Positions 7,801 to 29,560 of a DNA stretch of 64,000 nt are shown one piece after another. Source of the DNA: a virus (lineage: Duplodnaviria; Heunggongvirae; Uroviricota; Caudoviricetes); IMG/VR virus record IMGVR_UViG_3300028805_000051, positions 107,394-171,393 of that record, one strand, 5' to 3'. The translations under genes were made by a program, and so were the position numbers. Numbering within the stretch: the stretch's first letter is position 1; every line of letters begins with the position of its first letter. The notes below the pieces were generated by a model. The model saw only the letters and a program-made list of their open reading frames with translations, was not told where the DNA came from and ran no database searches.

Positions 7801-9244
7801 CTTTTTCAAATACTACATTATTCCAATTAGCATTTATTTGTGTTGGTTCAGTTTGTACTTGAGTTTCATTTATGATAATTCGTTTGTTAGCATCTGCATT
7901 AGAACGCATAGATGGTAACATGATAAAATTAGCATTTGCTGTAGGAGCAAAACTATTACTGTTATCTATAGAAACGTTCTTAGAATATACTAATATATTG
8001 TTTATATATGCTTTAATGTTAGCATCGAATGTTACATCAGATAATTCAATACTCAAATAAGGAGCAAAATTATATTTTGTATTATTTAAAGCTCCACTAA
8101 CAGTATTATCAATCCAAACACTACTACCATCTAAACTTGTAATTACAAATCTAACATCAGTACCTATAAGACTATTTTTATTATAAACAGCCCAATCTAA
8201 TACAGGTTGACTAGTCCAGTTTACAAGAGGTAAATTAAGATTATTAACTACAAGAAGAATATCTGTTGCATCTACTGTAGTAGCTATAACATCAACTCTA
8301 ATCTTGTTTGTTTCTACAGCTAATGTGCCATTACTTCTTAACCAAGTTTCAACAGTAATAACCCCTGGTGTAGCCATCAAACCTGTAGCAATAGGATGAG
8401 GAATATCAAGTCTATAACTACTTTCTATATATTCTGTAGTTCCAATATTAATACTATTTTCAGGAATTACAACATTTCCATTAGCATCATAACCTTTATA
8501 ATAAATACTTTTGTTAGTACTACCTGAAATTTTATAATTAATACTCATATTTGCAGAACTCGCAACTAGAGGATTATAAATTTTAGGTTCTTGCCAATTA
8601 TCGCTACTTTTAATACCCATTTCTGCAACAGAAATATCAAAAATTAATTCAGTTGCTTGTGCAAAAGTTCGATTACCTGTTGCTCCTATCATTATCTACT
8701 AATCTCCGTTAATTAAACAATCTGATAAATCTATAATTTTCTAATTAGAAAAACGTTGTGCATAAAGAGTTCTTGTAAAATTTTGTAATGTTTTTACAAT
8801 AACCCATCCTCCATTATCAACTTTTCTTGATATAGTTATTGTACCATCCTCAGCATTATCTATCCAAGATTGTGAAGAAGCTTCATAGCTCTATGTGGTA
8901 AATGATAAACTAATAGATATGTTTTTATTTGGCGAAGCAATTTGTGGATTTGTATTGCTAAATAAATGAACTTCAGATGCTGTAGTTCCCCCACCTCCAC
9001 CACTAGGTAATTGCATTGAAATTACTGGCTAAATCGAAGAAGGATCTTTCAAATAAGCATCTGCATCTTCTTTAGTATAAAAAAATCTTAAAACTGCTGC
9101 ACTATCCATTCCAGTTCTTATAGCATATCCTAATTTAGTCTAAGCTATTTGATTTTCTTTTACTGCTTTAACTAATCTAACAAATTCTTCAGCAGTTAAT
9201 TCATCACCAGTTATTTTTTCTAATAAATCATCTATATTTGTCAT
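1886..9244 (-). CDS. giant virion/tail-fibre-like protein. Coordinates 1886-8692 are a clean 2268-aa ORF. A same-frame 184-codon N-terminal extension (8693-9244) contains 6 in-frame TAG codons.
   Basis: The 2268-aa ORF is rich in Asn/Thr/Ser with repetitive beta-type segments, typical of receptor-binding fibres. Upstream, the frame stays open through 6 TAG codons to an ATG at 9242-9244, and 9244-8692 is a multiple of 3. The preceding gene stops at 9251, only 6 nt away, so the extension is a plausible real start; a separate TAG-containing ORF would fit equally. Confidence 0.55.
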
Positions 9245-9250
9245 ATTTTA

Positions 9251-9739
9251 TTAATTTGAAAATGTTAATGGAAAAACAATTGGAAAAATATTTCCAATAT
9301 GGTCTGACTTTGCTACTAATGTGCTTCCAGCATAAATGTAAAGTAAATTGTTATTATTTGCTGTCACAAAATACCATTTAGTTTCAGATACAGTTCCTTC
9401 CTACTAACGCTGTTGAAATTCTCTTAAAGTTAATTTATCTACAGCTTTATCACCTTGTGGTCCAGTTGGACCTAATAAATTTTTAAATTTGAATATAAAA
9501 TCTAATAATGGTGATCCAGTTACATTTACTTCAACTTCAGGAGTACCTTGTTGATTTAATTCACTGTCATCCACTTCAACACTGTGTACTTTTGGTGTAA
9601 TTCTTTCTATATACTCAGCTCTAAATTTTGAGTTATCTGGAGTATAAATAGATGGATCGAATATATCCTAATTGTTTCCACTCTAATGACACTATTTTTT
9701 AGTATTTATAGGACTTAAATTTCTATCAAATGTTTTCAT
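9251..9739 (-). CDS. small structural protein with a collagen-like Gly-X-Y patch (LLGPTGPQGDKA); contains about 6 in-frame TAG
   Basis: Codon walk from the ATG (plus cat 9737-9739) to the TAA (plus tta 9251-9253); length 489 nt is a multiple of 3. Confidence 0.45.
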
Positions 9740-10041
9740 ATTTTAATATCTGGAATAATCCAAAATAAAACACTTTGTAAATATTCTATCTAACTATCAT
9801 TTATCATATTACTGCATTCTACAATCTGTTTTATTTTATTATTAAGTTGTTTTACTAAATTATCATTTAATCCTCTTGGATCAGAACTATCGTTTAAAGT
9901 TATGTCTCTTATAACTTCATAATATTCATCAATAAACATTAAATACAGTAATATACAAATTTCAATATTAGGAACATTTCCATTCTTTTCAGCATATTCA
10001 AAATTATTATTTAATGCTAATAAAATCTAATTACTTTCCAT
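9736..10041 (-). CDS. hypothetical late protein; contains 3 in-frame TAG
   Basis: Codon walk from an ATG candidate at 10039-10041 to the TGA at 9736-9738, which overlaps the next gene's start codon as ATGA. The stop is solid; the start is uncertain. Confidence 0.35.
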
Positions 10042-10603
10042 GACAACAACAATTATTTATATTACTTACAGAAGTACTGTAATTTTCAGTACAATTATTA
10101 AATAAAGATTTAGAATTATCAATTGTAGCTGACCACGAACATAATTCATTTAATCTCTGCCAATATTTTATTGCAGATTTTATATCAGATATGGATAATG
10201 CTAATTTAAAACCATAATAAGCTAATATTGGTAAAGCATTCTAAATAAATTTATCTGAATTTTTATCTATCTAAAAAATTCCAGCCTTTTCTGCTACTAA
10301 ATTAAGCAGATTATAATTATTATATATTGGAAATATAAAAGGATATGTATTATCTGCTAATTCTAAATATGCAAATAATAATTCATTTGTTGTAAAAGGA
10401 GAATTACTAATATCTAAATCTATATTAAATAGAGTTCCTTGCTCAGGTCTATTTATAATAAAACTAGACGCACTAGGTGTTGAAGAAGAAACAAAAGTAG
10501 TAATATTATCTATTAAAATTCTACTATGGTTATCATATAATATTTGTTCTTCTGCAGATGCAACTAGTCTAATGTGTGTTTCATCAATAATTTTAAATAT
10601 CAT
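10031..10603 (-). CDS. hypothetical late protein, 190 aa; contains several in-frame TAG
   Basis: The ORF track fragment 10271..10603 extends past its TAG to a TAA at 10031-10033 (in-frame codon walk); 573 nt. Confidence 0.45.
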
Positions 10604-12810
10604 ACCTGTCTTATTGTATCGTTATATGGATTACCATCGTGTAATTGTTCTAATTCTACTTTTGTACGTAATAAGTCATTTTCATTACGTCCTTCTTTGT
10701 AGGTTCTATCAGTTTGTGCTTCAAACCATTTAACTTCATAGTCTTTCTAATAACGATTAGCATCAATTTGAATCTTTTGCTCATTAAGAGATTCAATTTT
10801 ACTTTGAGCCTTTTGTAATTCTTGTTGTGCTTGTTTTAATTGTGAAGTTAATTCTTCAACCTACTGTTGTAATTTTCCAACTACATTCTATTCTTCTTTT
10901 TGTTTCTTTACAGACATTTTAGCCATATGTTTAGCTTCAGATAAACTTTTACAAGTCATTATATCAAATAATGTATCTAAAGCTATACCTCCACCTTTTA
11001 CTAATTCAGGAACAAGCATTTTTAATTGTTCTAAATCTTTTACAATTTCAGAGTTTGCTACAACGTGTATATCCCAATCTGAAGTTGTAAAATACTTTGG
11101 TAATGCTGTAAAAATTTTCTAGAATTTATCTCCTAGAATCAAAGTTCCAGTTAATCCATTTTTATAAACTATTTTTGCTAAATTTAAACAATCTGTAAGA
11201 ATTTCTTCCGTAAGTACATCCATATGAGAGTACCATTGTTTAGAAATAGTAAATGAATTAGATTGACCTATCTTTACATTTGTTACAGCATCTCTTGCTT
11301 CAATTCCATTAAGTCTTTCTCTAAATACTCCTGATATGGAAGAGCAAGTTTGTTCTACAGAATCAATAGCCATTTGAATTGCTTGAATTGCTTGAGCTTT
11401 AACTGTGTCATCAAATCCATTAAATATAGTATTCATAGGAGCCTGACCAGTTGCCATTCTTCCTTCTTGAGCTGTATCAAGTAAAGCAACTCCTTGTTTT
11501 TTATAAGCAAGCCATGCTTTTAATCTTTCTGGCCAAGTTACACCTAAATTTGTAGGAATTAAAGATTCGTCAATCCAATCTCCAGAAGTTCCACTATTGG
11601 CAATTAAATTATCTCTATAAAATATAAGTAAATCATATTTATCCTAGAGATTTGCACATGCAAGCACTAAAGAAAATGGTTCATTACTTCTATTATCAAA
11701 GTATACACCATTTACTGTTAATGCACAATAGTTTGGATTATCTACACTTCTAGTAACATCTTCCTTTATTCCTCTCAAAATATACATACTATCACCAATT
11801 TTTACTGTTTGATAAAGCTGCATTTTAAAATCTTTATCAGTTTCAATCCATTCCACTTCAAATACTGGAATTCTTTCATAATTAGGATTATATGCTTTAT
11901 GTTTTTGAGTTGGTTGACCAGGAGACACTACTGCTTCCTAATCTCCTATTATACCCAGTGATTGACAACCAGAAGTGTGCATTAATTTAATGTATCTTTC
12001 TGAGTAATCTAAAAATCCTTGCCAATCATCTTTTAATTTTTGTATATCATCCTAATTTAATTCTTTTCCATATTTGGCTAGAATCTATGTTCTAGTTAAC
12101 CATCTTCTTACAACAACTCTATATGAATCTTTAACGTAAGGAGAATTTGGATTTTTATCAATAAAAGTATTTAGTGGATCTAAAACTTCAATTCCAACAT
12201 TATTTCCTTCAGCAGTTGGAACAGTTTGATAAAAAGTATATCCAGATACTAAAAGGTCTTTAATTAATGTCCATAATTTAGTTTTAAAATCTGTCTATCT
12301 ATTCTGCATTATATACTAAAGTACATCTTGTGATGCTATTTCATACTGAGAAATAAAATTAGTATTTAAATCTTCAACTAAAGTGTCTAAAGTTTCTTTA
12401 ATATAAGGATCCTATAATTTATTTTGATCTCCAGATTCTATAAAAGATAGAATTTTATTCTATAAATGTTGCTAAACTGTATTATAGATTTCTCTTGTAA
12501 TATGTAATTCTTTTTCTCTAGTTATAGCACTTATAGTTCTCTAGTCTTTGCAGGAAATCTTAGGAAGTATAGGAGTTCCTAAATATTCTCCAATTAAAGC
12601 ATCTACATGTTTACGAATTAATGGAGTAAATTCAACTGAAGTTGGATTACCTATTCCGAAATTTTCTTCTAAGTATTTAAACTATTCAGCATCTCTTTTT
12701 CCATTATAGTAATTATATGCTTTTTGTAGTTCATCTTTATCGTAAACAAGTTCTGCTATAGCAAGATCAGTTTTTTGGATTAATTCATCATTACTTTTAT
12801 ATTTTGCCAT
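10600..12810 (-). CDS. portal-like protein, 736 aa; contains more than 15 in-frame TAG
   Basis: A continuous frame links the ORF track fragments 11644..11928 and 11119..11457 to an ATG at 12808-12810 and a TGA at 10600-10602, which forms an ATGA overlap with the next gene. Size and position (just upstream of further virion genes) and an N-terminus MAKYKSNDELIQK...KAYNYYNGKRD resemble portal proteins. This assignment is an inference. Confidence 0.4.
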
Positions 12811-12869
12811 AGTTAAATATTATTTATTTTAAAATAAATATTTTAATATTATTTCCCAAGTATTTTATA

Positions 12870-13235
12870 TTAACTATTATTATTTTCAATAATATAAGTA
12901 ATATCATCTTGCTGAACTCTATGTGTAGTATCATAATCACCTTTAATACTATCATTTACCGGTCCAGGGCAATTTTTACTTGTTCCAATTGTAAAAAACT
13001 AAATAGCACCTAAAGCAGATTCTTGCAATGCTTTCTTTAAATATTTTAAAAAAGTATCTCCTTCAGCTTCAATTGCTACTACAAAAGGAGTTTCATCACA
13101 AAGTAATGGAATAGATACTTTATAACCTACTGGATATAATTTATCTATAATTAAGTTTCCTGTATAGCAGCAATCATATAATTCATTTATTAACTATCTA
13201 ACTTTTTCATTAATACATTCTTTAGATAGTTCATG
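12870..13235 (-). CDS. hypothetical late protein, 121 aa; 2 in-frame TAG
   Basis: Frame-checked; 366 nt. Starts at an ATG at 13233-13235 and ends at a TAA at 12870-12872. Confidence 0.4.
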
Positions 13236-13259
13236 TTCAGTATATACAATATTATTCAT

Positions 13260-13472
13260 TATTCGTATCCCCACACTCTTGGATCACTAGAACGAGGGCC
13301 TTTTTCTGAAGTTTCACTACGAACATTCATTTGCTAAGGCTATCCAGGAATAACACCCCATCGTTTGTAACCTCTTTCATCAGTATAATAACCTACTTTT
13401 TGTTGTACAGTTGTTTCATCTTGTTTTATAACTTTTACAGGAACAATTGAACCAAGTTCTTCGTCAGCTAGT
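13260..13472 (-). CDS. small hypothetical protein, 70 aa; 2 in-frame TAG
   Basis: ATG at 13470-13472 to TAA at 13260-13262. Translation: MTELADEELGSIVPVKVIKQDETTVQQKVGYYTDERGYKRWGVIPG-Q-P-Q-QMNVRSETSEKGPRSSDPRVWGYE (Q marks a TAG codon). Confidence 0.35.
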
Positions 13473-13536
13473 TCTGTCATCACTTATGTTACCCTATAGG
13501 CTTTTTATCCTATAGTTCTTATGGTTTCCCATAAGG

Positions 13537-14451
13537 TCAGCGTACATTTTCATTCTAATTAACAGAATGTTCCGCACTCTTGGGAGGATTATTACTCTCA
13601 TTAACGTTCACCTCCTACGCGTTACGGTGCTCAGCGATTAACTGAGTTACCTCGGTATCAACATAATGATTAAACTTATTATATTTTCTCGACAATCTAA
13701 AAATTGAATCATCATAAAGAATATGATACAAAGCGTCAGTTACTTTTTTACTAGCAGTACATAATCTATACATCTAATCTCTTTTTATATAATTTATATT
13801 CATAGAAATTTCATATTTTTCTGCTAACCATTTTTGAAATTCCACTAATAATGTACTAGTTTTAGCCTCTATTTGAACACTTGTTCTTATTGTCCAATTA
13901 ATTTCTCTATTTGCTTTATTAGGTTCGTGTATATAATAAGTAAAACAACCATCTCCATCAAAATAACCTCTAAAGAAATGTCTTACTAATTCTTCTGGCA
14001 TTTTAGGAATATGTAATTCCTTGTAAGTTTTTCTTTCAACAATTCCTAATTTATGCAAATCTTCTATTAAAATTTTACTAGCAATATTAAGTCTTATACT
14101 TGATTTATTTTTTACTGTTTTTCCTCTAACAGTAGCTAAAGATTCAGTACCTGAAAATTCTTGAACATAAGCATTAGGACTTATCATTTTAAAATATTTA
14201 AATATTTCAGCATCCTTATCATTTATATGAATAGAAAGTGTATGTCTTTCATCATTAATAGATCCATCTGACATTATAAATCCTAATAAATAAGCTTGTA
14301 ATTCAGTTTTAATTTCTTTAAAGAAATCATGTCTTATTGCTCTTTTGCTAGTTCCATTTATATATAATGGACAATTTTCTTTTAAATAATTTAATTCTTC
14401 AATTCTTGTCATACGATAATTCGTTTTAAGTTTAATCATATTAGCCTTCAC
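13537..14451 (-). CDS. LAGLIDADG homing endonuclease (two LAGLIDADG motifs). It reads through the TAG at 13774 and a second TAG, ending at a TGA at 13537-13539.
   Basis: Motifs LLGFIMSDGSI and FRGYFDGDGCF. After the annotated TAG at 13774 the frame continues for 78 codons of plausible sequence (MYRLCTASKKVTDALYHILYDD...) to a TGA. Total 915 nt. Confidence 0.65.
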
Positions 14452-14466
14452 CGATTTTGCGGAATT

Positions 14467-16596
14467 TTACATGGGCATGTAAAAAAGTCTACCCATACTA
14501 GCTATAATATCAAAATGAGTTTTATTTTCATCTGTGTATCTATTGAGTTCATCAAGCATATCTTCAAACCAAATTGTATGTCCAAAGTCTTCAACAAAAT
14601 TTGCAATTAAATCAGTTTGATGGTCAATAATTACTGTTGTAGCTGGAGTACCTACAGTTCTCCTTCCAATTTTTGTTGGGTCAGGATATGTAGCTCGAGG
14701 TCTTGCCATGAAATAATTATAGAATCCTTTTTCTCTAGCCCAAGTTAACATAGATACACGAGTTGCTTCAATGTTAATTGCAGCTTTATAATACTATGCT
14801 AAGCACATAGCTATTTTATAAGCTTCACGAATATCATCTGGTCTATCTTTATAATATGCAACATACTATGGTTCTCCTAAACCAAATGCACGCTTTTTAA
14901 TCGTTATGCAAAATTTAGATGGATTATCAGTATTAACTGAAGTATCTTTTGCTCCAATGTCAATAGAGTCAATACCCGCTATATATAAATTATGCATTTC
15001 TGAATAATCTCTTTCTTCATTTTCCTGAAGACTTTCCTTATATAAATTTGTCCAAACTGGATGCTCTAATATGTGTATCTTACCAGTTAGACTTTCATCC
15101 CATCTAAACCCTATAATATTTTCTTTAGTATGTACTCCATTCTTATATACATATGCTAAATTTCCATGATGTATTTCTGGAGCAATTTTATGTAATCTAA
15201 TATTTGCTAATTGCTCTGCTACGATAATTTTATTAAATTTATTTTCTCCTTCTAATGAGAAAGCTTCTTCAGCAGTAAAACAATATTCAGCACAATAAAT
15301 TATAAGAGCTTTTGGATCTTTTGCTTTTTTATCTCGCTAAGTATTATAATAAGCTTTACCTTTTTCAGGGTCAGTCCATCCTCTTTCATCAGTACAATCT
15401 GGTCTATTTACAATAGCATAAGCAGGAATAAAATAAGCAGTTGATACTTCTTCACCAGTAGGTGTATGATTATGGTGATATGGGAGAATATCATAAACAT
15501 CAGTATTATAATACATTTTACGTAATCCTTCAAGAGCTGCACCAGCATCACCACCTGTTCCTCCTCCTAATTTTATACCGAATCTAGCACCCTAAATTCC
15601 TACAAGAGCATCACCTTGAATAAAAGCTTTAGTTGAATTAGGCCAAGAACCCAACTCTTCATAAACTAATAAGTCAGTACGATCACCTCTAATTTTATTA
15701 GGTTTATCAGCAAGAATACCTTCAATCTAAGACATCCAACCAGTTTCAATTTTCTGACCATTTATAATTTTATATACAGATGCTCTCTTTTTAGTATAAG
15801 TATCTGACACTTGTCTTAATTTGAAGAAACCTCCATCGGTATAATTATTTAGGAAGGCAAGAGCATTCCATACTTTATCTAAAGTTTTATTTAAATAATT
15901 CTCTAACTAAGCTGTAAGGACATTAACTGAATTTCTATAACTATTATAAGCATTAGCTAAAATAGCAGCATTAATTTCAGAATATCCAATACCTCTAGCT
16001 TTCATTAACACAGCATTAACTCTTAATCTTCGAGCTAATTCAACATAATGAAAGAATTCATATTGCCCTACAAAGAATTTAGGGAAGTCGTATAAACGAG
16101 ATGAACCTGCTTTCTTTGCAGAAGTCAGGTCCATCAATTGATAAAAATTAAGAAAGAAATAATGGTCTCCTGTAATAGTATATCCATTAACAGTCATTCC
16201 ATCTTGACATCTTCTATACTGTTCATCCCAGAAATCATTGTATGCTTTCGTGTTTCTAGGATACTAACAATAATGACCTGTCCTTAAGAAAACCTCTCTT
16301 GTCTCTGTAAACCATTCAGGTTTAAAGTCTAAACCTTGTGTTTCATTAATCGGTTTATAACCTGTTATTTCATAAGACTTTCTAGCATCAAAATATGTAA
16401 CAACATCATTAACAGAAAAATCCCATCCACCATTACGTTCTTTTATGACTTCCTATTTAATTTGAGCAATTTCTTCCTACTATAATTTTTCTTCTTTTTG
16501 TTTAACCTCCTAAACTATGGTTTGTATTTCATCAGGAAGCTAAACAAGAGGAGTTTTTCTAGGTCTACCTCTTTTTCTTTTAACTTCTTCTGCCAT
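14467..16596 (-). CDS. terL: terminase large subunit, 709 aa, with about 12 in-frame TAG codons
   Basis: A continuous frame runs from the ATG (plus cat 16594-16596) to the TAA (plus tta 14467-14469); 2130 nt is a multiple of 3. The first in-frame TAG is at plus cta 16540-16542. The minus-strand translation has an ATPase-like N-terminal half (FVGQYEFFHYVELARRL, KARGIGYSE, a Walker-B-like LLVYEELGSWPN) and a nuclease-like C-terminal half (IAGIDSIDIG). The function call rests on overall resemblance. Confidence 0.55.
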
Positions 16597-16598
16597 AA

Positions 16599-17183
16599 TT
16601 AAAAATTAGGAGTATAACCATCTTCATAACCACCACGTAAAGTAGAAGATTCAGCTACTTCTTTCTTAACCATAGATTCAAGAGTTGTAAGTTCATCTTG
16701 AACCTTAGATAATGAAGAAATTTCAGCCATAATATCTTTTACTTTAAATATTGGTTTTCCTGTTTGTAAATCTCTTTCTTCAGGATCTATGTTATGAAAA
16801 TAATCAATAAATTTGTCAACAGTCTCTTGTGCAGCATGTAGTAAACGAATAGATCGAGTTGATTCCTAAATAGACTTAAATTTTCGACAAGCAGCTCTAA
16901 ATTCAGGATTATTAAACTCTTCATCTGTCATATGTGCATCTTGTAAAGAAAGCATATGTCGTTCTTGTTCACTAAAATCTGCATAAGGACTTTGCCAATC
17001 TAAAGCTAAATATATATATGTAAATTCTCTAAAAGCTCTTAATTTATATTTTCCGTCTTTATCCTCTTTACAAATATTTCGTTCATCTTTCATCAACTCA
17101 TTAAACTCTTTCACAAGTAATATTTCATGATGATTGAGTTCCACAGTACCATTAGCATTATTATATTGAAATATTTTTATCAT
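16599..17183 (-). CDS. hypothetical protein immediately upstream of terL (small-terminase candidate by position only); 1 in-frame TAG
   Basis: ORF track fragment 16866..17183 extended through a TAG to a TAA at 16599-16601; 585 nt. It has a coiled-coil-like C-terminus. Confidence 0.4.
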
Positions 17184-17932
17184 TTTGGAATTAATTTTAA
17201 TTTTAAACCTAATCTTCCAAAAGAAATGTTACTTCCTGATATTCCCCAAGGTCTTACTTCTGATTTAAAAGGTTTTGTAAAATCTAAAGTTTGTTTTACA
17301 TTGCTTGGATTTGAAGTAGTCATCATAGGTTTATTTATTGAAGTAGACCCAGTTATTGGGTTTAATTCAGTATTAAATGAAGTAATGGATGGAATATTAG
17401 GATTATTAATTGAACTTATAGATAAAGGATCTTTTTTCTGAGTTCTATTCCAATAATTTACGAGTAAATTATCATTATCCTATCCAAAACTTTGATTTGT
17501 TAATACATCATTATTTATTTTCTCTGAATCTTTTTTAGGAACATCTACTTCAACTTCAGGAACTTCTTCTTTTGGTTTATTAGATAATCTATTAAAAAAT
17601 CTTGGAAATCCTTGTCTACCAAGTGCTCCCATTACATTTATTATAGCTGGAGTTGGATCAATTTCATCTCTATCTTTCGGCTATTTAAATAAATTATATA
17701 AACCTTGAGCTGCTAAAGATCCAACTGAACTGTTAGGGTCCCACTATTGAGCTGCATGTAAAGCAGCAGAACGAATACTTGCTGTTTCACCTGCCGATGT
17801 GGCATAATCATTCTGGTCTTTTAAATCCTCTTTGAATTTTTCTTCCCATTTTTTAGCAGCCCAATAGTCCATAGCTCCATCTAACATAGTTTGTCCAGCT
17901 TGAGCTAAATTCATCCAACCTAGTGGTTCCAT
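17180..17932 (-). CDS. hypothetical late protein, about 250 aa; about 3 in-frame TAG
   Basis: The TGA at 17180-17182 overlaps the downstream ATG as ATGA. The gene is in the same frame as ORF track fragment 17744..17932, and an upstream in-frame TAA lies at 17972-17974. Confidence 0.4.
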
Positions 17933-17936: not shown

Positions 17937-19484
17937 TTATTTTTTACACTTTCTGCCGTTCTTAAATTTGGTTACTAATGGAGATTCTCCACCATTTTCC
18001 ATTTTCTTACCTTTGCAGGCTTCTTCTATTTTCTGACATTTTTTGCAAACTTTTCCACCAATCTTAAACATCTTCATTTCATAACCTTCTGGACATTTGC
18101 CTTGTAATTTTCTAAAATATTCAAGTTTAGCTCCATATTCAGCTTTAACTGATAATGCTTGCTAAATTCCATTTAAAGCTTTTGATGCTAATTCAGCCAT
18201 TTCCGGATCAGCATCTTTTTGTTTGCTAATTTTTGTAGCTAATGTAATAAAATTACCAAGTTGTTCTTGAGTTGTAATACCTAATATCTTAGATAAAGCT
18301 TCCATATCTCCAGTTGCAGCAGTTTCAAATGCAGATTTTAAAATTTCTCTTTGTTTTGCAGAATTATCTCTATTTACTTGTTGTTGGTTAACTTGACCAC
18401 CCATTTGAAAATATTTCATTTTACCACCTTTTTTAAATGTGTATTTATTACTTTGATATTTATAAGAAGATACCACATTTCCTTGTGCATCATAGACTTT
18501 ACCATCTGATCCAGCATAATATTTTGTACCATTAGCGTCTTGAATTACAAAGAAATCTCCAACAAAATTATCTTTAGAAAGACTTTTTCCATATAAAGCT
18601 CCGGCAGGATCAACAAATAATTTATCTGTTTCACCACCAGGAGACCAATAATTATCTATATGTTTTAAACCAAAAGCTGTCTATACTGCTCTTGCTCTGG
18701 CTGGATTAGTAATGCCTCTAGCTCCCCATTTTATTTTATCCCAATTGTCAACATTCTCAGATATTGCAGGGAGATCTGTTGGTAAAGTTGGATTAACTGT
18801 GTCAGGTTTATATAAATCAGATATAGCTTTAATCTAATCTGAAGTTAAATCATTAGCAGCAAGACTCTATAAATAACCATTAAAATTATCAGAATATCCT
18901 TGATTTGCTAAATAATTTTGTATTCCAACATTAGTAAAATTTCTATCAGTACCCAACAAGTCATTTAGAGTATTATATCTTTCATTTGCATATAAAGATT
19001 CAAGTAAAGCTTTATATGCTGGAGTATAAGAATCAGAATTATCAAAAGAATAATTATATGTTCTTTTTTCTTCAGGAGTTTCTACCTTTGATTTAGGGGT
19101 CACTTTAATATATGGATTATTAGTAGCCAACATTTTTTTACGAATATTGGCTTGTTCATCTGTCCAACCTTCTGGAGTAGAAACACCATATTTACGAGCA
19201 TATCTTTGATTATGTCTTTCTTCTCTTATTTTATTAAACCAATCTTCATCTGTGTACCCAGTATCTGTTGGCTTTCCTTGATCATCAGTTTGAAATGCAT
19301 CATTAAATCGATACAAGTTACCATTTTGACCTTGATATAAGTAACCGTTATCTCTAAAATACTATAATTTTTTTCGGCGATTAAATAATCCCAGACGAAG
19401 GTCTGAGAAATCTAAAACATTTGAACCATCAGTTGCTGGTGCAACTATGTTTTTACCAGCCTAAAAATATTTTATTTGTCTCAT
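17937..19484 (-). CDS. hypothetical virion protein, 515 aa; about 5 in-frame TAG
   Basis: ATG (plus cat 19482-19484) to TAA (plus tta 17937-17939); 1548 nt. Joins ORF track fragments 18867..19316 and 18162..18476. The C-terminus has a Cys-rich segment, CPEGYEMKMFKIGGKVCKKCQKIEEAC. Confidence 0.45.
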
Positions 19485-19705
19485 TGTTTTACAAGTTCTA
19501 AATCTTTTGTATTAAATACATCTTCTTGAATATATCCATCAGATGTAAACCATCTGCAACGTATTCCTCTTAATATTCCTTCCTTGTCTTCATCATGTTT
19601 AATCATACTGTTTACTTTTTTAACAACAAGCATGATTGGTTTATTTGGAATATTCTATCGAATAGTTACTAAATCACCTGGTGAAAAGAAAACTTTTTCT
19701 TCCAT
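19481..19705 (-). CDS. small hypothetical protein, 74 aa; 1 in-frame TAG
   Basis: ATG at 19703-19705. Its TGA overlaps the next gene's ATG (ATGA at 19481-19484). Confidence 0.35.
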
Positions 19706-19706
19706 A

Positions 19707-20294
19707 TTAGTCTTTTTTAAATCTTTCATTTAAATCATCATTAATTACACAAATTGCTCTAGTTTCATTAACTAGTCTAAATCCAAAGTTATAGAAAGGA
19801 ATTACTACTTCTGACATTACAGTCCACATAATAGTGTCTCCACTCTTTAACCATTTACATTCAGGACCCGCTTCGATAACTACACCTACTTTAATTACCT
19901 GTTCTGCTTCTTCATATTCTCCTGAATCACTATTTTTATATTCTGGAATCATTCCACCAAGATCTGTAATAAGGCCAGAACTAGAAACTGTTACTTTTTG
20001 GAATGGATTCTCAGTAAATGGACGTACAATAACATAATTACCAATAGGCATTATCTGTACTTCATTTAAATTTTTAGCATATTCATCAGCAGCTTCTTGT
20101 AATTTTTTCTCATGGTTAGCAAATTTATCTTCTATTTTCTGAACACTTTCATTCCATTTTTCACGCTTCATTGCATCAATGTGTTCATCTAATGATTTGT
20201 CATTCATATTAACAAATACTGCATCAGAATCAACTTTACTAATTTCTCTTGCAATTTTTTCTTGCATACTTAATTCATTTCTCATGTTTCCCAT
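19707..20294 (-). CDS. protein with a C-terminal GroES-like (Hsp10 / T4 gp31-like) co-chaperonin domain
   Basis: The C-terminal segment NYVIVRPFTENPFQKVTVSSSGLITDLG...KVGVVIEAGPECKWLKSGDTIMW resembles a GroES-like fold. No TAG in this ORF. Confidence 0.45.
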   Translation of the reverse strand: MGNMRNELSMQEKIAREISKVDSDAVFVNMNDKSLDEHIDAMKREKWNESVQKIEDKFANHEKKLQEAADEYAKNLNEVQIMPIGNYVIVRPFTENPFQKVTVSSSGLITDLGGMIPEYKNSDSGEYEEAEQVIKVGVVIEAGPECKWLKSGDTIMWTVMSEVVIPFYNFGFRLVNETRAICVINDDLNERFKKD

Positions 20295-20317: not shown

Positions 20318-20596
20318 TTACCATTTCCCAGCTATACATTTAGCATTAGGTAATGTGGTTTTAGCTAGGAGTCGACAACCACATCCCTGAACATAACCCT
20401 CTAAAGGTTTTAATGATACTTTATCTGTATCTGGATCTATCCAAAGTTTTCTGTTGCAGGTTCCTCCCCATTCAATAGAATAGATAGGACATTTCTTGCA
20501 TATCTTCATTCTATATTCTGATATATCTTCATTCAAACCAACTAATTCGTTGATATGTCCTTTAACAATTTGTCCTACAGGAAGTTTCATATACAT
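20318..20596 (-). CDS. small Cys-rich (zinc-binding-like) protein
   Basis: ORF track entry; CKKCP...CN...CGC motifs. Confidence 0.45.
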   Translation of the reverse strand: MYMKLPVGQIVKGHINELVGLNEDISEYRMKICKKCPIYSIEWGGTCNRKLWIDPDTDKVSLKPLEGYVQGCGCRLLAKTTLPNAKCIAGKW

Positions 20597-20678
20597 ATAA
20601 TTTAAAATAACCCTTTAAAAAGAGAGTGAATGTTTTTATCTTATAAAGACCAAAAATATTTTTAACAAAATTTAAGGG

Positions 20679-21590
20679 TTAATATTCAATTGGTTTTCTT
20701 TTAGCACGTTGAGCTTCTTTAATTAGCTCTTTCTTATAAAAAGCTAACATTCTTTCAACTTCCGTTTTTAAATAATCACAATGATATAAAGTATTATTTC
20801 CATCATGATCATAATGATTTAATATTAAATCTTTAATAACAAATTCTGGATTAATTTTTTGAAGCATCCAAGCATAAGTTGATAACTGAAGTTGATAGTG
20901 ATTAAAGTTACAATCATCTAAATTATTTAATGGATACAGCATTTTAACTGTAGATTTTGTGTTTGTATTAAAACCACCTTTTAAATCTAATTTCTTATTA
21001 GTTTTATGGTCAATTATGATTATCTCATTTCCATTTTTTACTAAACAATCAATTTGTCCAGCAATATTCAATATACCATCTGGAGAAGTTCTAGAAATTA
21101 AGTATTCTGGATAAACTCCGTAAGGTAAATCAAGTTCAGTGTAATTTCGTCTACACTCAAACTTACCTCCTAAACCAAATTTCTTCAGTTCAACATTTTT
21201 ACCTCCATTATAAAACTCATTTTCTAATTGAGCATGAATCTTAGTACCTCTTTCACAAGATTTACGATTTTCTTCATCCCAAGCATCTAAAATGTCTTGT
21301 TGAGTTTTATTGAAGTCATTTTCAGAAATATCATATACATCTAAAATAGATTTATTGAACCTTTTTGTATTTAATAGAGATTTTTTCTCAATTTTCCAAG
21401 AATCTGCTGGAATTAATTTTTCTAATGCTTTATAAGCACTCCAAAAATCTCTATCAAAAGGTTGTCCAAACTTTTCAATTAAAGTAGTAACTGAAATAAA
21501 TCTTTTTGATTCATCATTTACATTCCAGTATTTGTGTTTTTCTTCATTAAACGCAATACTACCATTTTGTTTATCAATTTGCATACTCAT
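20679..21590 (-). CDS. PD-(D/E)XK-family nuclease-like protein
   Basis: ISVTTLIEKF and IIIDHKTNKK motifs resemble PD-(D/E)XK motifs II and III. It is the first gene of the minus-strand operon. Confidence 0.45.
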   Translation of the reverse strand: MSMQIDKQNGSIAFNEEKHKYWNVNDESKRFISVTTLIEKFGQPFDRDFWSAYKALEKLIPADSWKIEKKSLLNTKRFNKSILDVYDISENDFNKTQQDILDAWDEENRKSCERGTKIHAQLENEFYNGGKNVELKKFGLGGKFECRRNYTELDLPYGVYPEYLISRTSPDGILNIAGQIDCLVKNGNEIIIIDHKTNKKLDLKGGFNTNTKSTVKMLYPLNNLDDCNFNHYQLQLSTYAWMLQKINPEFVIKDLILNHYDHDGNNTLYHCDYLKTEVERMLAFYKKELIKEAQRAKRKPIEY

Positions 21591-21619
21591 ATATCATTTG
21601 ATTATTTTTACTATTGTCT

Positions 21620-21838
21620 TTAGTCTTCTTTATCTCTTCCTATTTTGTATTTGTAGGAATAATCTACTCCTATTAAAGCTCCTACAAATGTAAGTGTTTC
21701 GCCATATGCGACTAGCACTGAGTTATCTATTACACCTGTCGGAGGTACAATAAATGAAGCTATCAATAATCCAATACCAAAAATTATAAGTAGTACTGAT
21801 AGCCCTAGTTGTATTGATAATTTATTGAACCTTTTCAC
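21620..21838 (-). CDS. small membrane protein
   Basis: ORF track entry; two hydrophobic helices. Confidence 0.4.
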   Translation of the reverse strand: MKRFNKLSIQLGLSVLLIIFGIGLLIASFIVPPTGVIDNSVLVAYGETLTFVGALIGVDYSYKYKIGRDKED

Positions 21839-22029
21839 CTTTTAACGTTATTAAATAATTCTAATTAAACAAATAAATACAATTCGCAGTAAGCCGAATC
21901 TAATAAACTTGTTCTAACCTTTATCTATTTTGAATTTACTAAAATTAACTGTATTATTAGTTAAAACAAAATTAAAGGATATAAAGAATGAAAGTTTAGA
22001 TAAATTTAAACAATTTCAATGATGATGTT

Positions 22030-23673
22030 TTGCCACATCTTGAAGATAATACTTCTAATGGTTATTTTTCTCAATTAATTCCTATGGGAAAATTGGGGAT
22101 ACATATTAAAAAGAAAAATAGGGGTTCTTTTACTTCATATTGTGGTGGAAAAGTTACTGATGCTTGTATACAAAAAGGAAAAAATAGTTCTAATCCTGTA
22201 ACAAGAAAAAGAGCAACTTTTGCAGATAATGCTAGAAAATGGAAACATTAGGAAGGTGGTTCTTTAATCCCGGGAATAAACTATAAAAGTATTAGTAATT
22301 TATTTGTAGATACGGATCAAGCACCTGTTTATGATCCAAAGAGTAATAAAAAGAGTAAAAAAGATAATGTAGATCCTCTTTTACAAGACTTGTCTGTATA
22401 CTAGTAGCCTAAAAGAACTTATGATTTAAGTTCTATTTATAATAATAGTATAGAAGACCACTAGGAAGAACCTTGGTATAATACAGTTTATCATGAATAT
22501 CAACCTTCTTCTAAAACACCTAGTATTAGTCACGATAGATTAATGGCAGCTATTACTCCTCATTTAGGATTTAAAGGTTCTCTTGGACATTATGATTGTT
22601 CTAATTTTGTTTCTCGTATTTTAGGAGATTTAGGATATAATTTATCTGGAAATTGTAGAACACTTTATGCTAATACTGATAGAGTAGATTTACCTGATTT
22701 AAGAGTAGGGGATTTAGTATTTAAATAGGACACACAAGGTGATAGAGTTCCGCATGGTTAGGCTAGTCATGTTGCTATTGTAACTGATGTAAGTAGACTT
22801 GGTGAAGGAATAATTCAAGTAGCCTAGGGAAGTGCTTCTGGATCAAAAACTTAGATTATGGACTGGAATTTAAATAATATGTCAAATTATTTTGGTGCAG
22901 GCAGAATACGTAAAGGTAAACAAGGATTTAAATTTCAATTAGGAGGATTATTAACCTCTTTACCTACACCACAAAGATTTTCTCCAGATAATTTCTTTGA
23001 AAGTGAAAATGAAATTAGTAATGAACCATTAAATATTTCTTTTTAGATAGAAGATGTTCCTCCTTTATTTGAGCAAAAACGATAGTAGTAGCAAGCTTTA
23101 ACTAATAATGAAGAAGATAATGCTTGGTATACTAGAGTGTATGCTCCTAAAAAGAAAAAAAGTAAATTATTGACTCCATCTGAAAAACATTATTCTGGCA
23201 AAGGATATAATTTCTTTAAATAGGAATTTGATAAATATTTATCTATTGATCCTTCAGCAAAAAAGTATGAACAAGTTTTAACAGACATTGCTAATAGAGA
23301 AAGTAGATTTAATTTTGGAATACAAAATACTGCTGGGGCTCCTGCTTATGGATGTTTCCAATTCTGGCAAGATGGTAAAATAAATAATATTACTCATTAT
23401 TCTGGATTAAGTGTTGATGAATTCCTTAACAATCCTCAAGCACAAATTGCTGCTGCGGTTAAATTGGCAAGAGATATAGAAAAAAGATTTAATTCAGAAG
23501 ATTTAAGAATTGCTAATGCAAGAGGATATGATATGAATGCTTTAATTAAAGGAGCATGGTTAGGAGGAATTGGTGGAGTTAGAAAAGTATTAAGAGGGTT
23601 AGGTAATCCTAGTGATAGTAAATGGTACGGTGGAAAAAGTGGAGCAAGTGTTAAACAAGTAATGGAATCATAA
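22030..23673 (+). CDS. virion-associated peptidoglycan hydrolase with an NlpC/P60-CHAP-like Cys/His region and a lytic-transglycosylase-like region; 547 aa with about 16 in-frame TAG, including three consecutive
   Basis: A single frame joins ORF track fragments 22030, 22543, 22858 and 23464, all with position mod 3 equal to 1, and ends at a TAA at 23671-23673; 1644 nt. Motifs: HYDCSNFVSRILGDLGY...HVAIVTDV and AYGCFQFWQDG...GAWLGGIGG. The TAG-TAG-TAG run is at about 23086-23094. Confidence 0.5.
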
Positions 23674-23688
23674 TAAATATAAACTTAT

Positions 23689-25350
23689 ATGAAAAAATTA
23701 ATTAAAAAATACTAGTGGGGAAATATAATGGTTCCTCCAGTCCCAGGAACTACCCCAAGTAATAGCGATTAGATGGGAGCTATTAATTATTATAATTAGC
23801 AGCAAAGTTAGATACCCATAATAAAGCAAAAAGATGCTGAAAGAAAAGAAGCTGAGGCAAAAAAAGCCTACGAAAGACATAGAGGATATATTGGGCCAGA
23901 TAAAAATCCAAAATCTTATAAAGAAAGAGAAAATGATGCAAGAAGAAATGAAATTAATTATATGGTTCAAACTAATCCTTATCATCAATGGATTTCTGAT
24001 CCAAATGGTACTGGTTCAATGTAGGCTGCTGTAAAAATAATGCCTTAGGTTATTGAAACAACTTAGAATTATTTTAATAGACCAGTAGGTGAAATTTTAA
24101 AAGGAGAGGCAAGAACTTTAAATCATGCACTTAATCCATTTATGGTAACTGATGATGCATTTTAGAGATCAAAATATTATATGCAGCATGGTTAGCCTGT
24201 TTTAGGAATGTTAAGTGGGTTTGGTGGATTTGGTTTAGGTACTTTAAGTGCATTTCCTTTTGCTACTCCAGTAAAATCTGGAATTGGTTATACAGTGAAT
24301 GCTGGAAGAAAACTTGGGAGACAAATAGCTAGTGATTACACCAATTGGGTAAATTCAAATATATCTCAAGGATTGCGTTTAGGTAGTGATTTAGGATTTA
24401 CTCCTCAGTTTCAAGTAGCTGGAACCAATTTTAATTTAAGAGTCACTCCAGAATTAACTTTTGGAAGATTTAATACAATGAACAGTGTAGGACAAAATTT
24501 CTGGAATACACTTAGAGGTAAGAATAAAATTGTTGAAAATGCTGCCCCTGGTCTTGAGGCTCCAACTGGTAATGAGGCATCTTTAGGAAAATTGGCTCCT
24601 ATTTCAAACAAGAATGGTAATGTTCCTGTATATACTAAATCTCCAACTAAAAAATATTTCTTATCAGATGAAGAAATTTCTGATCCATCTTTAGTAACTA
24701 AAGAAAATAATGTTTCGTATATAACAGACCATGGTAATGTAATTTATAATCCAGAATTAGTTACAGAAGAAGTAGCTGGCAAACCTGTGTATAAGTATAA
24801 TGGTAGAAAAGTTACTCCTAAAACTACAACTGCTTATAAATATAATGGTAAATATTATCCAGAAGCTCCAATTGAAAAAGAAATTCCTGGAAAAACTCAA
24901 TTAAATGTTGGAGATGATTTACCTCGAGATGCTATATATTATGATTTTGAATCATCATCATATTAGCCTATTAATGGTGCAATATTTAGAAGACCAGGAG
25001 GCCGTGCATGGAATAGATGGACATATGCTAATGGATAGACTCCAAAGGGTTTTAAGAATCCTTGGATTTTACATACTACTATAGCTCTTCCACTCGTAAC
25101 AGGATTAGTTGCTGGTCATAAACCTATATTTAATTTTATAGGAAATAGGGTATACAGTCTTAGACAAGGAACTGGATTATTTGGTCCTGGAAGACCTAAG
25201 AAAACTCCAGTAAATAATAATTCTTCAACTGAGAATACTGATAATGGTTCAACTAGTACTACTGATACAACTACTACCACACTTCCTGTAATTGATACAG
25301 CAGCACAAAATTAGCAAGCTAATGAATTATTTAAAGAATTTGGTTATTAA
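23689..25350 (+). CDS. hypothetical virion protein, 553 aa; about 14 in-frame TAG
   Basis: Codon walk from the ATG at 23689 through ORF track fragment 24208..24966 to a TAA at 25348-25350; 1662 nt. Confidence 0.5.
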
Positions 25351-25355
25351 CTAAA

Positions 25356-25396
25356 TAAAAGCCCATTCTCTTTAATTAGGGTATGGGCTTTTTAAA
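25356..25396 (+). terminator. rho-independent terminator
   Basis: Hairpin aaagcccat...atgggcttt followed by a T-run. Confidence 0.55.
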
Positions 25397-25407
25397 TATA
25401 ATAAATT

Positions 25408-27234
25408 ATGATGAAACTAATACCTAGATTTAAAACTGGATATAAAACTCCTGATTGGGATCCTACAAATCCTTATCATTATCATACAGAAGATGGTAAG
25501 AAGGTTGTTATAACTCCTGAAGATTGGAAAGCTAATGTAGGCAAACCTTACTTTAGAGAGATCGAAGCTGCTGTTAGAGCAGAACAAGCTGCTCATCCCG
25601 CACCTGAATATGAAGTAAATCCTACTTTTGTTAGAGACTTAAGAAGTACTTATCAGTATAACATGGGTAATGGTTATTAGAACTATAAATATTTCAGCTC
25701 AGCTCTCCCTCAAGGATACAGTTTTACAGATGAAGGAATGATAGTAGATCCACAAGGTAACTATTACGTACAATCTGGTTATAGACAATCTCCTAGATTT
25801 ACTTATAGTACAGATAATCCTTTACAATTTACTATCAATAAAGGTAAACCTATTGAAAGAAATCTTACATTCTATCCTGTTAATATGGATAAGAGAGTTA
25901 AAGCACCTCTTCCTGTTGACAAAACTTTAGATGTTAGTAAAGAATATGAAAACGCAGTAAATCTTTTAATAAAAGATAATACAACATCTATAACGAATAA
26001 ATCAACTCCTATAAATATATACAAATTCCAAAGAACAAATAAATATGATAATATTAATGGAAATCCTGTAATTTTCTATCATGCAGACGTTCCATCATAT
26101 CCTATTTCAGAATTAACTAATAAACAAAATTACAGTCTATTTTATACTAAACCGGAACTTTATAAAACTGTAAATGTTCCGTATGATTTAAATAGAATAA
26201 GAAAAGATAATCCAGATTTGGCTATAGATTTTGAAAGATGGATTCAACAAGGTGCTGAAGACCAATCGTATCATTATGACAAACCATGGTTTGAGCAATT
26301 TGAAAAATATAAAACTGGAACTTACATTAATAAACCTTCTCGTCAAGAAGCTGAGAAAAAGGCTGTAATATCTATTAGTCCTTTAGAAAAAGTAAAGACA
26401 TTTGCTAATGGAGGACATTTGTTTCAAAAAGGAGGAAAAGTTAAAGGGTATAAATTGTCTTCTAAACTAATGCGTTTAGCACAAAAATTTGCTGACAAAG
26501 AAGCAGCAAAGCAAAATGAAGAAGAAGGTAATGGAGCTCCTCAATCAACTTTCTTAATGAATAGAAAAAATTAGCAAAAAGTTTTTGAACAAGAAGGATA
26601 CACAAAAGTAGATAGCGATAACTATGGTCCAGTAACAAATGCTGTGAAAAATAGTAAACATAAAGATGTTCCTATTTATTAGAAATATCCTGATGTTGAT
26701 GTGGATAGAAGTAATTTAGTAAAAATTGGAACATTTATGGATTATGCAATAAAAGGCGTACATGGTGAAACAGAAATATATAGTGGTCCTTATGAAAGTT
26801 ATCTTACAGACCCAGCTAATTTTCCAGTAGATATTTATATTGATAGAAAAACTGGTAAAGTTTATAATCAAGGTTGGGATTTTAATGACTATAATAATCT
26901 AAGAAGTACTACTGATATATCAAAATTAAAGAATATTGCTGGTAATGTACTTGATAGAATTGGAAATCCCACTGTAGTAACCACTGGATTGTAGGAAAAT
27001 GAAAATCCTCCAAAAGAAATAATTGATGATTATATAAGTAAAGCTTCTAATGGATTTTTATAGTATAATTCAAATGATGGACAAATTCAATTAAAGCCAG
27101 TTACTATCACTGCTTAGCGTACTAATAAAAAACTAATCCCAAAAGAAACAAAAGATCTACCTACTACTGGAGAATTTAGAAATATGAGTGCAGATCAATT
27201 GTTTGATTGGCTAGAATAGAATAGAAAAAAATGA
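25408..27234 (+). CDS. hypothetical virion protein, 608 aa; about 9 in-frame TAG
   Basis: Joins ORF track fragments 25408, 25738 and 26701 in one frame and ends at a TGA at 27232-27234, which overlaps the next ATG; 1827 nt. Confidence 0.5.
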
Positions 27235-27554
27235 TACAGACTAAAATAAACGGTCATGAGATTACCATTACAACTAATAATATCAATATAAAAGATTCCT
27301 ATTTAGTTTGGAATCCTTATGATATGTATGATATGTTAGATAAAATAAAAGTATTCTTAAAAGAAAATAGCATTACTATGGACACACCTCTTAATCATAG
27401 AACAAAACTTTCAATGATAAGAGAATGGATATCACATAATAATGCTTATTACTTAGGATATAAAAAAGATCAAGCGTGTAATGTAGATTTAAACTATCCA
27501 CAAAAATGGTATGTTAAAATTATTTATTTCTTTTGTAGCTTAATAAGATTATGA
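27231..27554 (+). CDS. hypothetical protein, 107 aa
   Basis: ORF track entry. ATGA overlaps at both ends. No TAG. Confidence 0.5.
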   Translation: MIQTKINGHEITITTNNINIKDSYLVWNPYDMYDMLDKIKVFLKENSITMDTPLNHRTKLSMIREWISHNNAYYLGYKKDQACNVDLNYPQKWYVKIIYFFCSLIRL

Positions 27555-29560
27555 CAAAATTAATTCCACGATATTAGCACGGAAACCCATTTTTAATAGA
27601 TAAATCTTCAATTCCTGGAACAAGCCCACAGACATCAAGTACGATTAATTATAATTGGGAATAGCGTGCTGCTAATAATGAATCAGTTAAAAAAGCTGAA
27701 CAAGAAAGAGCACAACAAGCATATTTAGATAGACGGGGATACATTTCTGAAGATAAAGATAAAAGAAGTTATGCCCAGAGAGATGTAGATGATAAAATAA
27801 ATGCTACAAAAAATGCTAAAACGGATTTTTATAGTATGGGTGCTCCTAATTCACAAAGTACTGATGTAACTCCTAAACAAGTATTAATACCTGCATTTGT
27901 TGCCGGAACTACATTTATAAATCCAGTAGCTTCTCTAATATATGGCGGTATGTACGAACCTATGGAAAAAGCAGGAGTTTATCAGCCAATTAGTTTAGGT
28001 CTACAAAAATTAGGAATGAATGAAGATGCTGCAAATATGACATCTTATTTTGCTACTGATTTAGGTATAGGTTTATTACCAGTTGTCAAAAATAGATTTA
28101 TCAATGCCTATAATAAAGCATGGAATCAAACATATGGTAATTTAAATAATCTAGGTATAAGTCCTTTCAGGAGAGTGACAAAAAATGTAAATAAACTTGT
28201 AAAAAAACCTTCCAGAAATTATTATCCAATAGAGGAAATGGCAAACAATATAGCAGAAAGAAGAGCTCCAAATACTTATACTAAATATGTAAATCAAGAA
28301 GCTATAGATAATGGGTATGAAACATATAGGAATGCAGTAAATAATGCTGCAATAGATAATATACAAAGTATAGCTAATGCTAGAATTAATTTTAGTAAGT
28401 TAAAGAAAAGAACTACACAAGAATTAAATGATTTTAATAAATTATTAACCATATCTCCTGAATATGGAATATTTTTATCATATAACCCAACACTCGATGG
28501 TCTCTCACAAGAAGCAATAGATGCATTCATAGAACACCAAAGTCTTAGTGTTAGAGGTATAGGTGTTCAAGAGAAAATACCTAAAACTACTACAGGAGCA
28601 GGTTATGTTAGAGTACACAATGCATCTGCAATAAACGATAAAAAAGCAGAAAAATTTTTAACAACACCACCAGAAAATCCTTTAGACAGATTAGGTAATA
28701 GAGGGCTTTATACTTCTAATGGTAGATATATTGCTGATAAATTTATGAGACCAGAAACAAATGGGTATAACTCTGCGTCTTATCAAGGAATAGTACATTA
28801 TGACTTCAACATAGATAGAAGTAAACCTTTAGAAGAACAACTTAGACAATATAGAAGTAAAATAAGAAATTACGATTGGGATATAACCGATCCAAGAGAG
28901 GAAATGATTGAGGCTACTTATGTTAAAAGTGGTGAGGGGGCTACAAAGAATATATATGAAAGATCAATAAACCCAAAAGGAGTGGATAAACCTGTAGTTA
29001 ATTTAAGGAAGCTTCAATATTTCGGTAAAAATCTGCCTAATTTACATGGTCGTTGGGGGTTAAATGATCTTAGTGCTGTTAGTGATCTTGATTTATTTAT
29101 ACCAAAACAACCTAGTCGCTCATTTGGTGAATTTTTAAATTTTGCTAGAAGATTAAAATCCACAAATGAATTTACTATAAAAAAGCGTAATCCTAATTAT
29201 TCTGCAGAATATTCTAATGCTTATGGTATACTGAAAAGTCAGCTTGAAAAGCGTGATAAATTAGTTAGACAATTAGAAAAGAAACATAACTTTGTAACAA
29301 AAAGCTTAAAAAGCTTATTAGTGACACCAATAGTAGGAGGTGTTGGTGCAGCAGTGGGACTTATTAAAGCATCAAATGATCGGCAGAATAAATGGTATAA
29401 TGATCATGCTATAGAACTGAGTGAGATAATAAACAAAGAATTAGGCAATGAAAAATCATATAAAGATATGACAGATGAAGAATTCGAAAAACGTTTGGAC
29501 CAAGAACATGAAATAATAGAGAGGGAATATAATAAATACAAAGAAAGTCTTAAAAAGTAA
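27551..29560 (+). CDS. hypothetical virion protein, 669 aa; 2 in-frame TAG near the N-terminus
   Basis: The ORF track entry 27836..29560 extends upstream in-frame through 2 TAGs to an ATG at 27551; 2010 nt. Confidence 0.5.

Follow-up and report, generated by a model that had tools for sequence, protein, structure and literature searches.

Probable reading of TAG as glutamine in the packaging, virion and lysis genes of a 170-kb crAss-like phage genome

Are the in-frame TAG triplets that interrupt the late genes of the phage record IMGVR_UViG_3300028805_000051 stops or sense codons and, if they are translated, as which amino acid and to what end? We examined this question in a stretch of 64,000 nucleotides (nt) of that record (hereafter the window), which is AT-rich (32% GC) and comes from a contig of 170,300 bp. 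This contig was located through an exact protein match, whereas exact nucleotide searches of IMG/VR and of the metagenome contigs of the Joint Genome Institute (JGI) gave no hit; the source samples are JGI 3300031994, SRR9006654 or the run behind ERZ27256871. An earlier note, made from the sequence alone, had proposed that the late operons on both strands between about 8.7 and 29.6 kb carry TAG codons throughout and terminate with TAA or TGA. We consider it very probable that this is a crAss-like genome of about 170 kb and of the Zeta type which employs two codes, its packaging, virion and lysis genes being written in code 15, where UAG specifies glutamine (Gln).

The late block (8693-29560) was found to contain 96 in-frame TAG codons, counted from the first ATG, in 18 tightly packed genes on both strands. 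The terminators of all 18 are TAA or TGA, as the earlier note had stated, and the same is true of all 20 TAG-containing genes of the window. Delimited by these two stops, the open reading frames (ORFs) form two divergent tight chains, one on the minus strand from 21590 down to 1886 and the other on the plus strand from 21988 to 29560. The gene junctions had been described as ATGA or TAATG overlaps with TGA or TAA as the stop, and we located five of the former (at 19484, 17183, 10603, 9739 and 27551) and a single one of the latter (13259). A TAG-TAG-TAG run reported at about 23086 occupies 23083-23091, inside the plus-strand gene 21988-23673. Since TAA or TGA is expected about once per 17 codons in random frames at 32% GC, the ORFs of 500-2450 codons that appear when TAG is read as sense are more than chance would give. 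The base following TAG (+4 position) showed no bias (chi-square p = 0.46).

Coding density and gene length were estimated for 8693-29560 by a simple gene finder with a codon-usage model under three codes. The density rose from 0.60 with table 11 (37 genes, median 90 amino acids (aa)) to 0.97 with table 15, in which TAG is sense (20 genes, median 222 aa); table 4, in which TGA is sense, gave the same values as table 11 (0.60, 37 genes, 90 aa). Neither of the two refuting tests named in the earlier note spoke against recoding. In bins from 8 to 28 kb, stop-to-stop ORFs of at least 100 aa covered 0.40-0.66 of the sequence under table 11 and 0.80-1.00 with TAG as sense, and reading TGA as sense brought little or no gain in most bins. 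A strict test asked for a coding signal, by the codon-usage model, over 40 codons on each side of a TAG, uninterrupted by TAA or TGA; 72 TAGs passed, 71 of them within the 8-28 kb bins. The short fragments in the ORF track, which had been put down to TAG, recur in public annotation: on the same DNA, the table-11 gene calls of JGI are short fragments, and code-15-aware calls are exactly the long genes.

Profiles and full-length homologs run across the TAGs, which supports the reading of TAG as a sense codon, and of TAA and TGA as the stops, in the late module. Profile searches with the table-15 proteins matched the large terminase subunit (TerL) and the portal. TerL gave one unbroken match to phrog_6681 (residues 68-703, E 1.6e-68) across its TAGs, aligned end to end with full-length homologs of 777 aa, and kept an identity of about 89% to P0001/L003, the homolog closest to it, over the whole length, including the parts downstream of TAGs. 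The portal (10600..12810, minus strand, 736 aa, stop TGA) matched phrog_6547 with E 1.9e-47, has homologs in 81 loci, and equals in length the code-15 gene call in L003/L098; it holds exactly 15 TAGs, where more than 15 had been claimed. The Pfam matches to Amidase_3 and NlpC/P60 likewise extend over TAGs. If the TAG-bounded fragments were separate genes, homologs might be expected to show them as such, and the genes of standard-code relatives are uninterrupted: TerL of L001 is continuous with 0 TAG, and P0165/L096, in table-11 translation, is collinear with both the N-terminal extension and the body of a giant gene of the minus chain across its TAG-TAG junction.

Recoding was not confined to the late block. 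Between 30.6 and 64 kb the coding density is essentially equal under tables 11, 15 and 4 (0.56-0.57), and the sole internal TAG confirmed there by homology lies in a lysis gene for an N-acetylmuramoyl-L-alanine amidase (45823..46533, plus strand), at codon 203. Its Pfam Amidase_3 match covers profile positions 1-145 of 174 if the frame is cut at the TAG, and 1-173 of 174, with 73.5 bits, if it is read through. The amidase gene is embedded in an array of tRNA genes, far from the structural block, so the proposal of a recoded region at 8.7-29.6 kb stands and its restriction to that region does not. Other genes of the 30.6-64 kb part encode HD-domain, YqeY/GatB-like and SPFH proteins, a nucleoside deoxyribosyltransferase, an HNH endonuclease and several domains of unknown function. 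In a glucosaminidase-domain gene of this part (38799-39551), TAGs in the first 18 codons are possible, the start being uncertain.

The window holds 25-28 tRNA genes by ARAGORN and Rfam, among them a 72-nt suppressor tRNA with anticodon CUA, tRNA(CUA), at 30117..30188 on the minus strand (Rfam tRNA, 46 bits). It lies by itself in a small cassette on the minus strand that has no TAG and is flanked on one side by the end of the late operon of the plus strand and on the other by the tRNA array (38.6-63 kb, plus strand). Its canonical cloverleaf has G18G19 in the D loop, a GTTCGAG T loop, a 5-bp anticodon stem, a 4-nt variable loop and a two-base spacer joining the acceptor and D stems, and it matches the E. 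coli Gln identity elements at U1:A72, G2:C71 and G10. The closest relative, L092, carries a nearly identical copy. A tRNA-Gln(CTG) of L087 has the same anticodon arm with modest overall similarity, and that arm is also found in Trp, Met and Asn tRNAs of relatives; the link of tRNA(CUA) to tRNA-Gln is a weak one. We also considered a "code-change module" (release factor or aminoacyl-tRNA synthetase) beside the suppressor and rejected it, as none was found.

From this arrangement we propose how the two codes could be used. The host would be one with the standard code, and genes needed on entry into it would be among those that carry no internal TAG. The code-15 packaging, virion and lysis genes would be translated in full only with the phage's own tRNA(CUA), which is presumably charged with Gln by the host glutaminyl-tRNA synthetase, in the manner of E. 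coli supE. It would compete with release factor 1 (RF1) at UAG, and TAA and TGA would stay terminators. The arrangement could then act as a post-transcriptional timing gate, holding back late and lysis proteins until the suppressor has built up. As to the placement of TAG within genes, the window has 26 TAGs in 950 codons in the first 50 codons of genes versus 73 in 7711 in the rest (odds ratio (OR) 4.3 relative to Gln codons, p = 1e-5). Across 14 recoded relatives the OR was 0.6-2.7 and mostly not significant, and 5' enrichment was rejected on that ground as general evidence for a translational gate.

The same recoding could have an anti-host purpose, which we regard as possible and rather improbable. 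The suppressor would then cause UAG stops of host genes to be read through, to the detriment of host proteins, defence proteins among them, and the TAGs of the late genes would be a tolerated by-product. Such a purpose has been proposed for crAss-like phages (PMC7886860, PMC12386605), and some Zeta phages retain a CUA suppressor without any recoding (PMC12386605). Two non-late genes of the window end in TAG followed by an in-frame TAA, at 35439 (plus strand, 8 codons later) and at 60974 (plus strand, 0 codons later). The TAA codons have the look of back-ups that guard against read-through by the suppressor, a pattern noted in other Zeta phages (PMC12386605), and back-up stops in non-late genes suggest that the suppressor is active during their expression. 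What damage to the host leaves unexplained is the concentration of TAG in virion, packaging and lysis genes and its absence from about 40 others. The anti-host and timing purposes are not mutually exclusive.

Whichever purpose recoding serves, the amino acid inserted at TAG had to be determined from DNA. Reading Gln directly off database homologs would have been circular and was rejected, since the proteins deposited for recoded relatives had already been translated with code 15; the L003 TerL protein, for example, has 8 TAGs rendered as Q. The test was therefore done on the DNA of 85 loci, with the relatives' own TAG codons excluded from the likelihood, and was self-calibrated on the column behaviour of each ordinary amino acid in the window. 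Opposite the TAGs of the window, relatives of at least 75% identity showed CAA 31 times and CAG 13 times (Gln 44), TAG 25 times, Lys 15 times and Glu 7 times. Over 36 columns Gln ranked first, ahead of Glu by 13.4 nats and of Lys by 16.6 nats, and in the reverse direction the relatives' TAGs most often oppose CAA in the window. Glutamine is thus the best-fitting amino acid at the TAG positions of these aligned sequences, the earlier note having suggested that alignment be used to look for a favoured residue. It is very unlikely that TAG stands for another residue, be it pyrrolysine, Glu, Lys, Tyr, Trp, Leu or Ser. Such a reading could appeal to the Glu and Lys codons that distant relatives often show opposite TAGs, to the lack of G73 in the CUA tRNA, and to the label "Pyl" that ARAGORN gave this tRNA; the label was given because of the anticodon only. 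The likelihood, however, places Gln at least 13 nats above every alternative, the closest relatives mostly have CAA or CAG, and proteomics found Q at TAG in other crAss-like phages. A tRNA-Pyl has a 6-bp anticodon stem, a 3-nt variable loop and a small D loop, and lacks G18G19 and TΨC, so the shape of the CUA tRNA is unlike it. Scans of some 45 proteins of the window against Pfam or PHROGs, with about 30 small ORFs outside their scope, showed no pyl genes (pylS, pylBCD). The proteomic and metaproteomic evidence for TAG read as Q in crAss-like phages is that of Peters et al. 2022 (PMC9523058).

That the late region is instead a decaying, pseudogenised module or an assembly artefact, with the TAG-bounded fragments as leftovers, has a negligible chance of being right: the fragmentary table-11 calls on the identical contig would suit it, whereas the frames of terL and portal, within homolog-defined extents, are broken by TAG alone (27 TAG, 0 TAA, 0 TGA, against a 77% share of TAA and TGA among their off-frame stop triplets), the TerL identity to P0001/L003 persists downstream of TAGs, 25 TAGs are position-shared with relatives of at least 75% identity, and 10679-31590 is 100% identical in three public assembly records, so that the TAGs are not errors of a single assembly.

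Several observations weigh against the two-code interpretation with its Gln-inserting suppressor. The tRNA(CUA) deviates from the E. coli Gln set by U73 in place of G73 and U3:A70 in place of G3:C70. Near it, within the 64 of 170 kb covered, neither a release factor nor an aminoacyl-tRNA synthetase was found. The first three genes of the minus chain are TAG-free, encoding a PD-(D/E)XK exonuclease, a 92-aa ORF product and a GroES-like protein; together with the TAG-free body of the giant gene, they make "late" and "recoded" not exactly coincident. Some TAGs near the starts or ends of genes could be real starts or leaky stops instead.

The giant gene (1886..9244, minus strand) encodes a protein of 2452 aa with a BspA-type leucine-rich repeat domain, likely a receptor-binding or fibre protein. 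Its N-terminal extension is recoded, as the earlier note had seen, and all 6 of its TAGs lie in codons 35-183 (8698-9142). That account needs correction beyond the extension: the remaining 2269 codons (1886-8695) are completely TAG-free. A similar division was found in the 669-aa gene at 27551, which has TAG only at codons 9 and 38 and none in the other 631 codons (27665-29560). In both of these operon-distal virion genes, therefore, TAG occurs only near the 5' end. The TAG-free bodies contain 71 (giant gene) and 24 (27551) Gln codons, out of 77 and 25 in the whole genes. If TAG took a 33% share of Gln-type positions, as it does in other late genes, the probability of such TAG-free bodies, computed from the whole-gene counts of 77 and 25, would be about 4e-14 and 5e-5. 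The homolog of the giant gene in a heavily recoded relative, L002, has 64 TAGs. Composition gave no support for a foreign source of the 2269 TAG-free codons of the giant gene, their GC, GC at third codon positions (GC3) and codon usage being like those of other late genes. As a tentative and less likely reading, such mixed usage inside single genes may mean that a few 5' amber codons suffice for gating a gene, that C-terminal host-recognition modules are swapped with standard-code phages across the code boundary, or that these modules are kept TAG-free for the yield of very long proteins.

The terL gene was found to be split. Exon 1 (14492..16596, minus strand, 702 codons; exon end at 14491), defined by phrog_6681 and by alignment to the 777-aa homologs, carries the 12 TAGs that had been estimated for terL, and a further 2 lie in a separate exon 2 (13259..13480, minus strand, 73 codons, stop TAA), whose translation corresponds to the last 70 aa of full-length TerL homologs. 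Between them is an intron-like insertion of 1010 nt (13481..14490, minus strand) with an ORF for a LAGLIDADG homing endonuclease (13537-14451, minus strand; phrog_4645, E 1.7e-38 across the first TAG). The earlier note was right that this ORF is recoded (3 TAGs) and wrong in treating it as a free-standing late gene. Compared with the uninterrupted alleles of L003 and L006, the insertion falls exactly between GGT and ATG (GGT|...G|ATG versus the contiguous GGT-ATG of L006), and the predicted exon junction would read ...AGTATGGGT|ATGACAGAA... The 5' exon ends in U and the insert in G. A P1/P10-like pairing can be drawn between AUGGGU of the exon and GCCCAU 14 nt into the insert, with the adjacent CAU facing the AUG of exon 2, and the 3' 206 nt of the insert have a stable fold (z = -4.94). 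These splice-site rules and pairing would fit a group I intron. An Rfam search of the insertion gave no group I or group II intron match at E up to 10, and because no catalytic core (P3-P9) was recognisable in that search we call the insertion intron-like and not a proven group I intron. Given the conserved ATG at the start of exon 2, the 73-codon C-terminal piece of TerL may be translated separately. Among relatives, terL carries inteins in P0048 and P0081 (Hint/LAGLIDADG domains) and is split in L002.

The other recoded late genes are distributed over both chains. On the minus strand, four genes lie upstream of terL, 19481-19729, 17937-19484, 17180-17932 and 16599-17183, with 1, 6, 3 and 1 TAG; the last of them matches phrog_16390. 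A conserved late gene of 129 aa (12870..13259) has 2 TAGs, and three small late genes joined by ATGA overlaps (10031-10603, 9736-10041 and 9251-9739) have 2, 2 and 5. On the plus strand, five virion genes constitute one operon, 21988-23673, 23689-25350, 25408-27234, 27207-27554 and 27551-29560. All five contain TAG, as had been claimed; their counts are 14, 12, 7, 1 and 2, and the maximum is 14 rather than the 16 given earlier. The product of 21988-23673 has NlpC/P60 and SLT-like domains. An N-terminal motif, M-x-K-L-I-x-x-Y/F-(TAG)-x-G, is common to several virion proteins (within 21988-29560 on the plus strand, and 17937-19484 on the minus strand). Its TAG, at codon 8-9, is kept in three virion proteins and replaced by K in a fourth (25408). 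Possibly the motif serves a set of paralogous internal virion proteins as a common signal for targeting or processing. The GC3 of the late genes (8693-29560) is 0.12-0.14, markedly below the 0.23 of the genes in the tRNA region (30600-64000).

The tRNA region has further features of its own. Two tRNA genes on the plus strand were detected by Rfam only and missed by ARAGORN: one at 62374-62494, whose anticodon loop reads CUUUGGA (UUG, Gln) and whose variable region is enlarged by about 50 nt, and one at 42182-42321, with 69 extra nt in the anticodon loop. The latter adjoins the HNH endonuclease gene (41518-42111). A tRNA-like gene at 38632-38720 (plus strand) was given a four-base anticodon (gctg) by ARAGORN and scored 35.8 bits as tRNA in Rfam; the TAG-sense ORF 38631-39551 overlaps it with its upstream part. 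Within the array, 49863-50303 (plus strand) encodes the YqeY/GatB-like protein (Pfam YqeY, E 1.4e-31). The YqeY domain is related to the tRNA-binding tail of subunit B of the Asp/Glu-tRNA amidotransferase, and on account of this kinship a tie of the protein to Gln-tRNA metabolism is conceivable.

As to kinship, the TerL matches with a product annotation are, among the matches listed, all from crAss-like phages (26-31% identity over 71-88% of the protein), and no record of the phage collection searched exceeds 52% identity to TerL. The two GenBank records nearest in TerL are human-gut phage scaffolds that lack annotation; one of them shows heavy TAG recoding and a split terL, and the other is in standard code. 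Those IMG/VR relatives that come from long contigs reach about 150-197 kb, and the relatives have 0-15 TAGs in TerL over short evolutionary distances. Major capsid protein (MCP), gene75, IHF and the giant RNA polymerase with a DxDxD motif were not identified in the 64-kb window, in which no search was aimed at them; they are probably encoded elsewhere on the 170-kb contig. Assignment to the Zeta group, a crAss-like group with TAG recoding (Yutin et al. 2021, PMC7886860; reviewed in PMC12386605), is circumstantial, by analogy with its described members.

Amber recoding of late and lysis genes with a phage-encoded suppressor tRNA is already well described, and what is new here is a lineage not yet annotated. 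The locus adds one more lineage to the documented pattern of large crAss-like gut phages and opens no new question. Because the public table-11 calls are fragments, standard pipelines miss TerL, the portal and the virion proteins, and the contig needs a code-15-aware annotation. Minor new material consists of the recoded homing endonuclease in the terL insertion, the absence of TAG from the body of the giant gene and the isolated recoded amidase, which are possibly useful for studying the gene-by-gene spread of recoding.

Among known systems, the simplest counterpart of the proposed suppressor is supE (glnV) of E. coli, a tRNA-Gln with a CUA anticodon that inserts Gln at UAG in competition with RF1. 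The phage tRNA shares the CUA anticodon, and would by analogy share the insertion of Gln at UAG and the competition with RF1; it differs in that its link to tRNA-Gln is modest and its identity elements match the E. coli set in part. The Zeta group (PMC7886860, PMC12386605) resembles this phage more broadly: its members have a crAss-type TerL and portal, genomes of 145-192 kb (170.3 kb here), a large tRNA set including a CUA suppressor, Gln reading of TAG that is mostly found in late genes, code states that switch among close relatives, homing-endonuclease insertions in core genes, and TAA back-ups behind the TAG of non-recoded genes. Borges et al. (bioRxiv 10.1101/2021.08.26.457843) described recoded gut phages that comprise crAss-like, Lak, Garnet, Agate, Jade and other phages. 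As in our window, the alternative code is used for structural and lysis genes (including an amidase) and the standard code for the others, a recoded homing endonuclease lies inside an intron (here an intron-like insertion), and a suppressor tRNA is the proposed switch in a timing-gate model. In contrast to those phages, the window has no "code change module" with a release factor or synthetase, and its amidase gene is apart from the structural block, within the tRNA array. The block-wise alternation of code 15 and code 11, which would make the window a typical case for testing, also agrees, with no substantive difference, with the multiple codes of the Mgcod type described within one phage genome (bioRxiv 10.1101/2022.06.29.495998).

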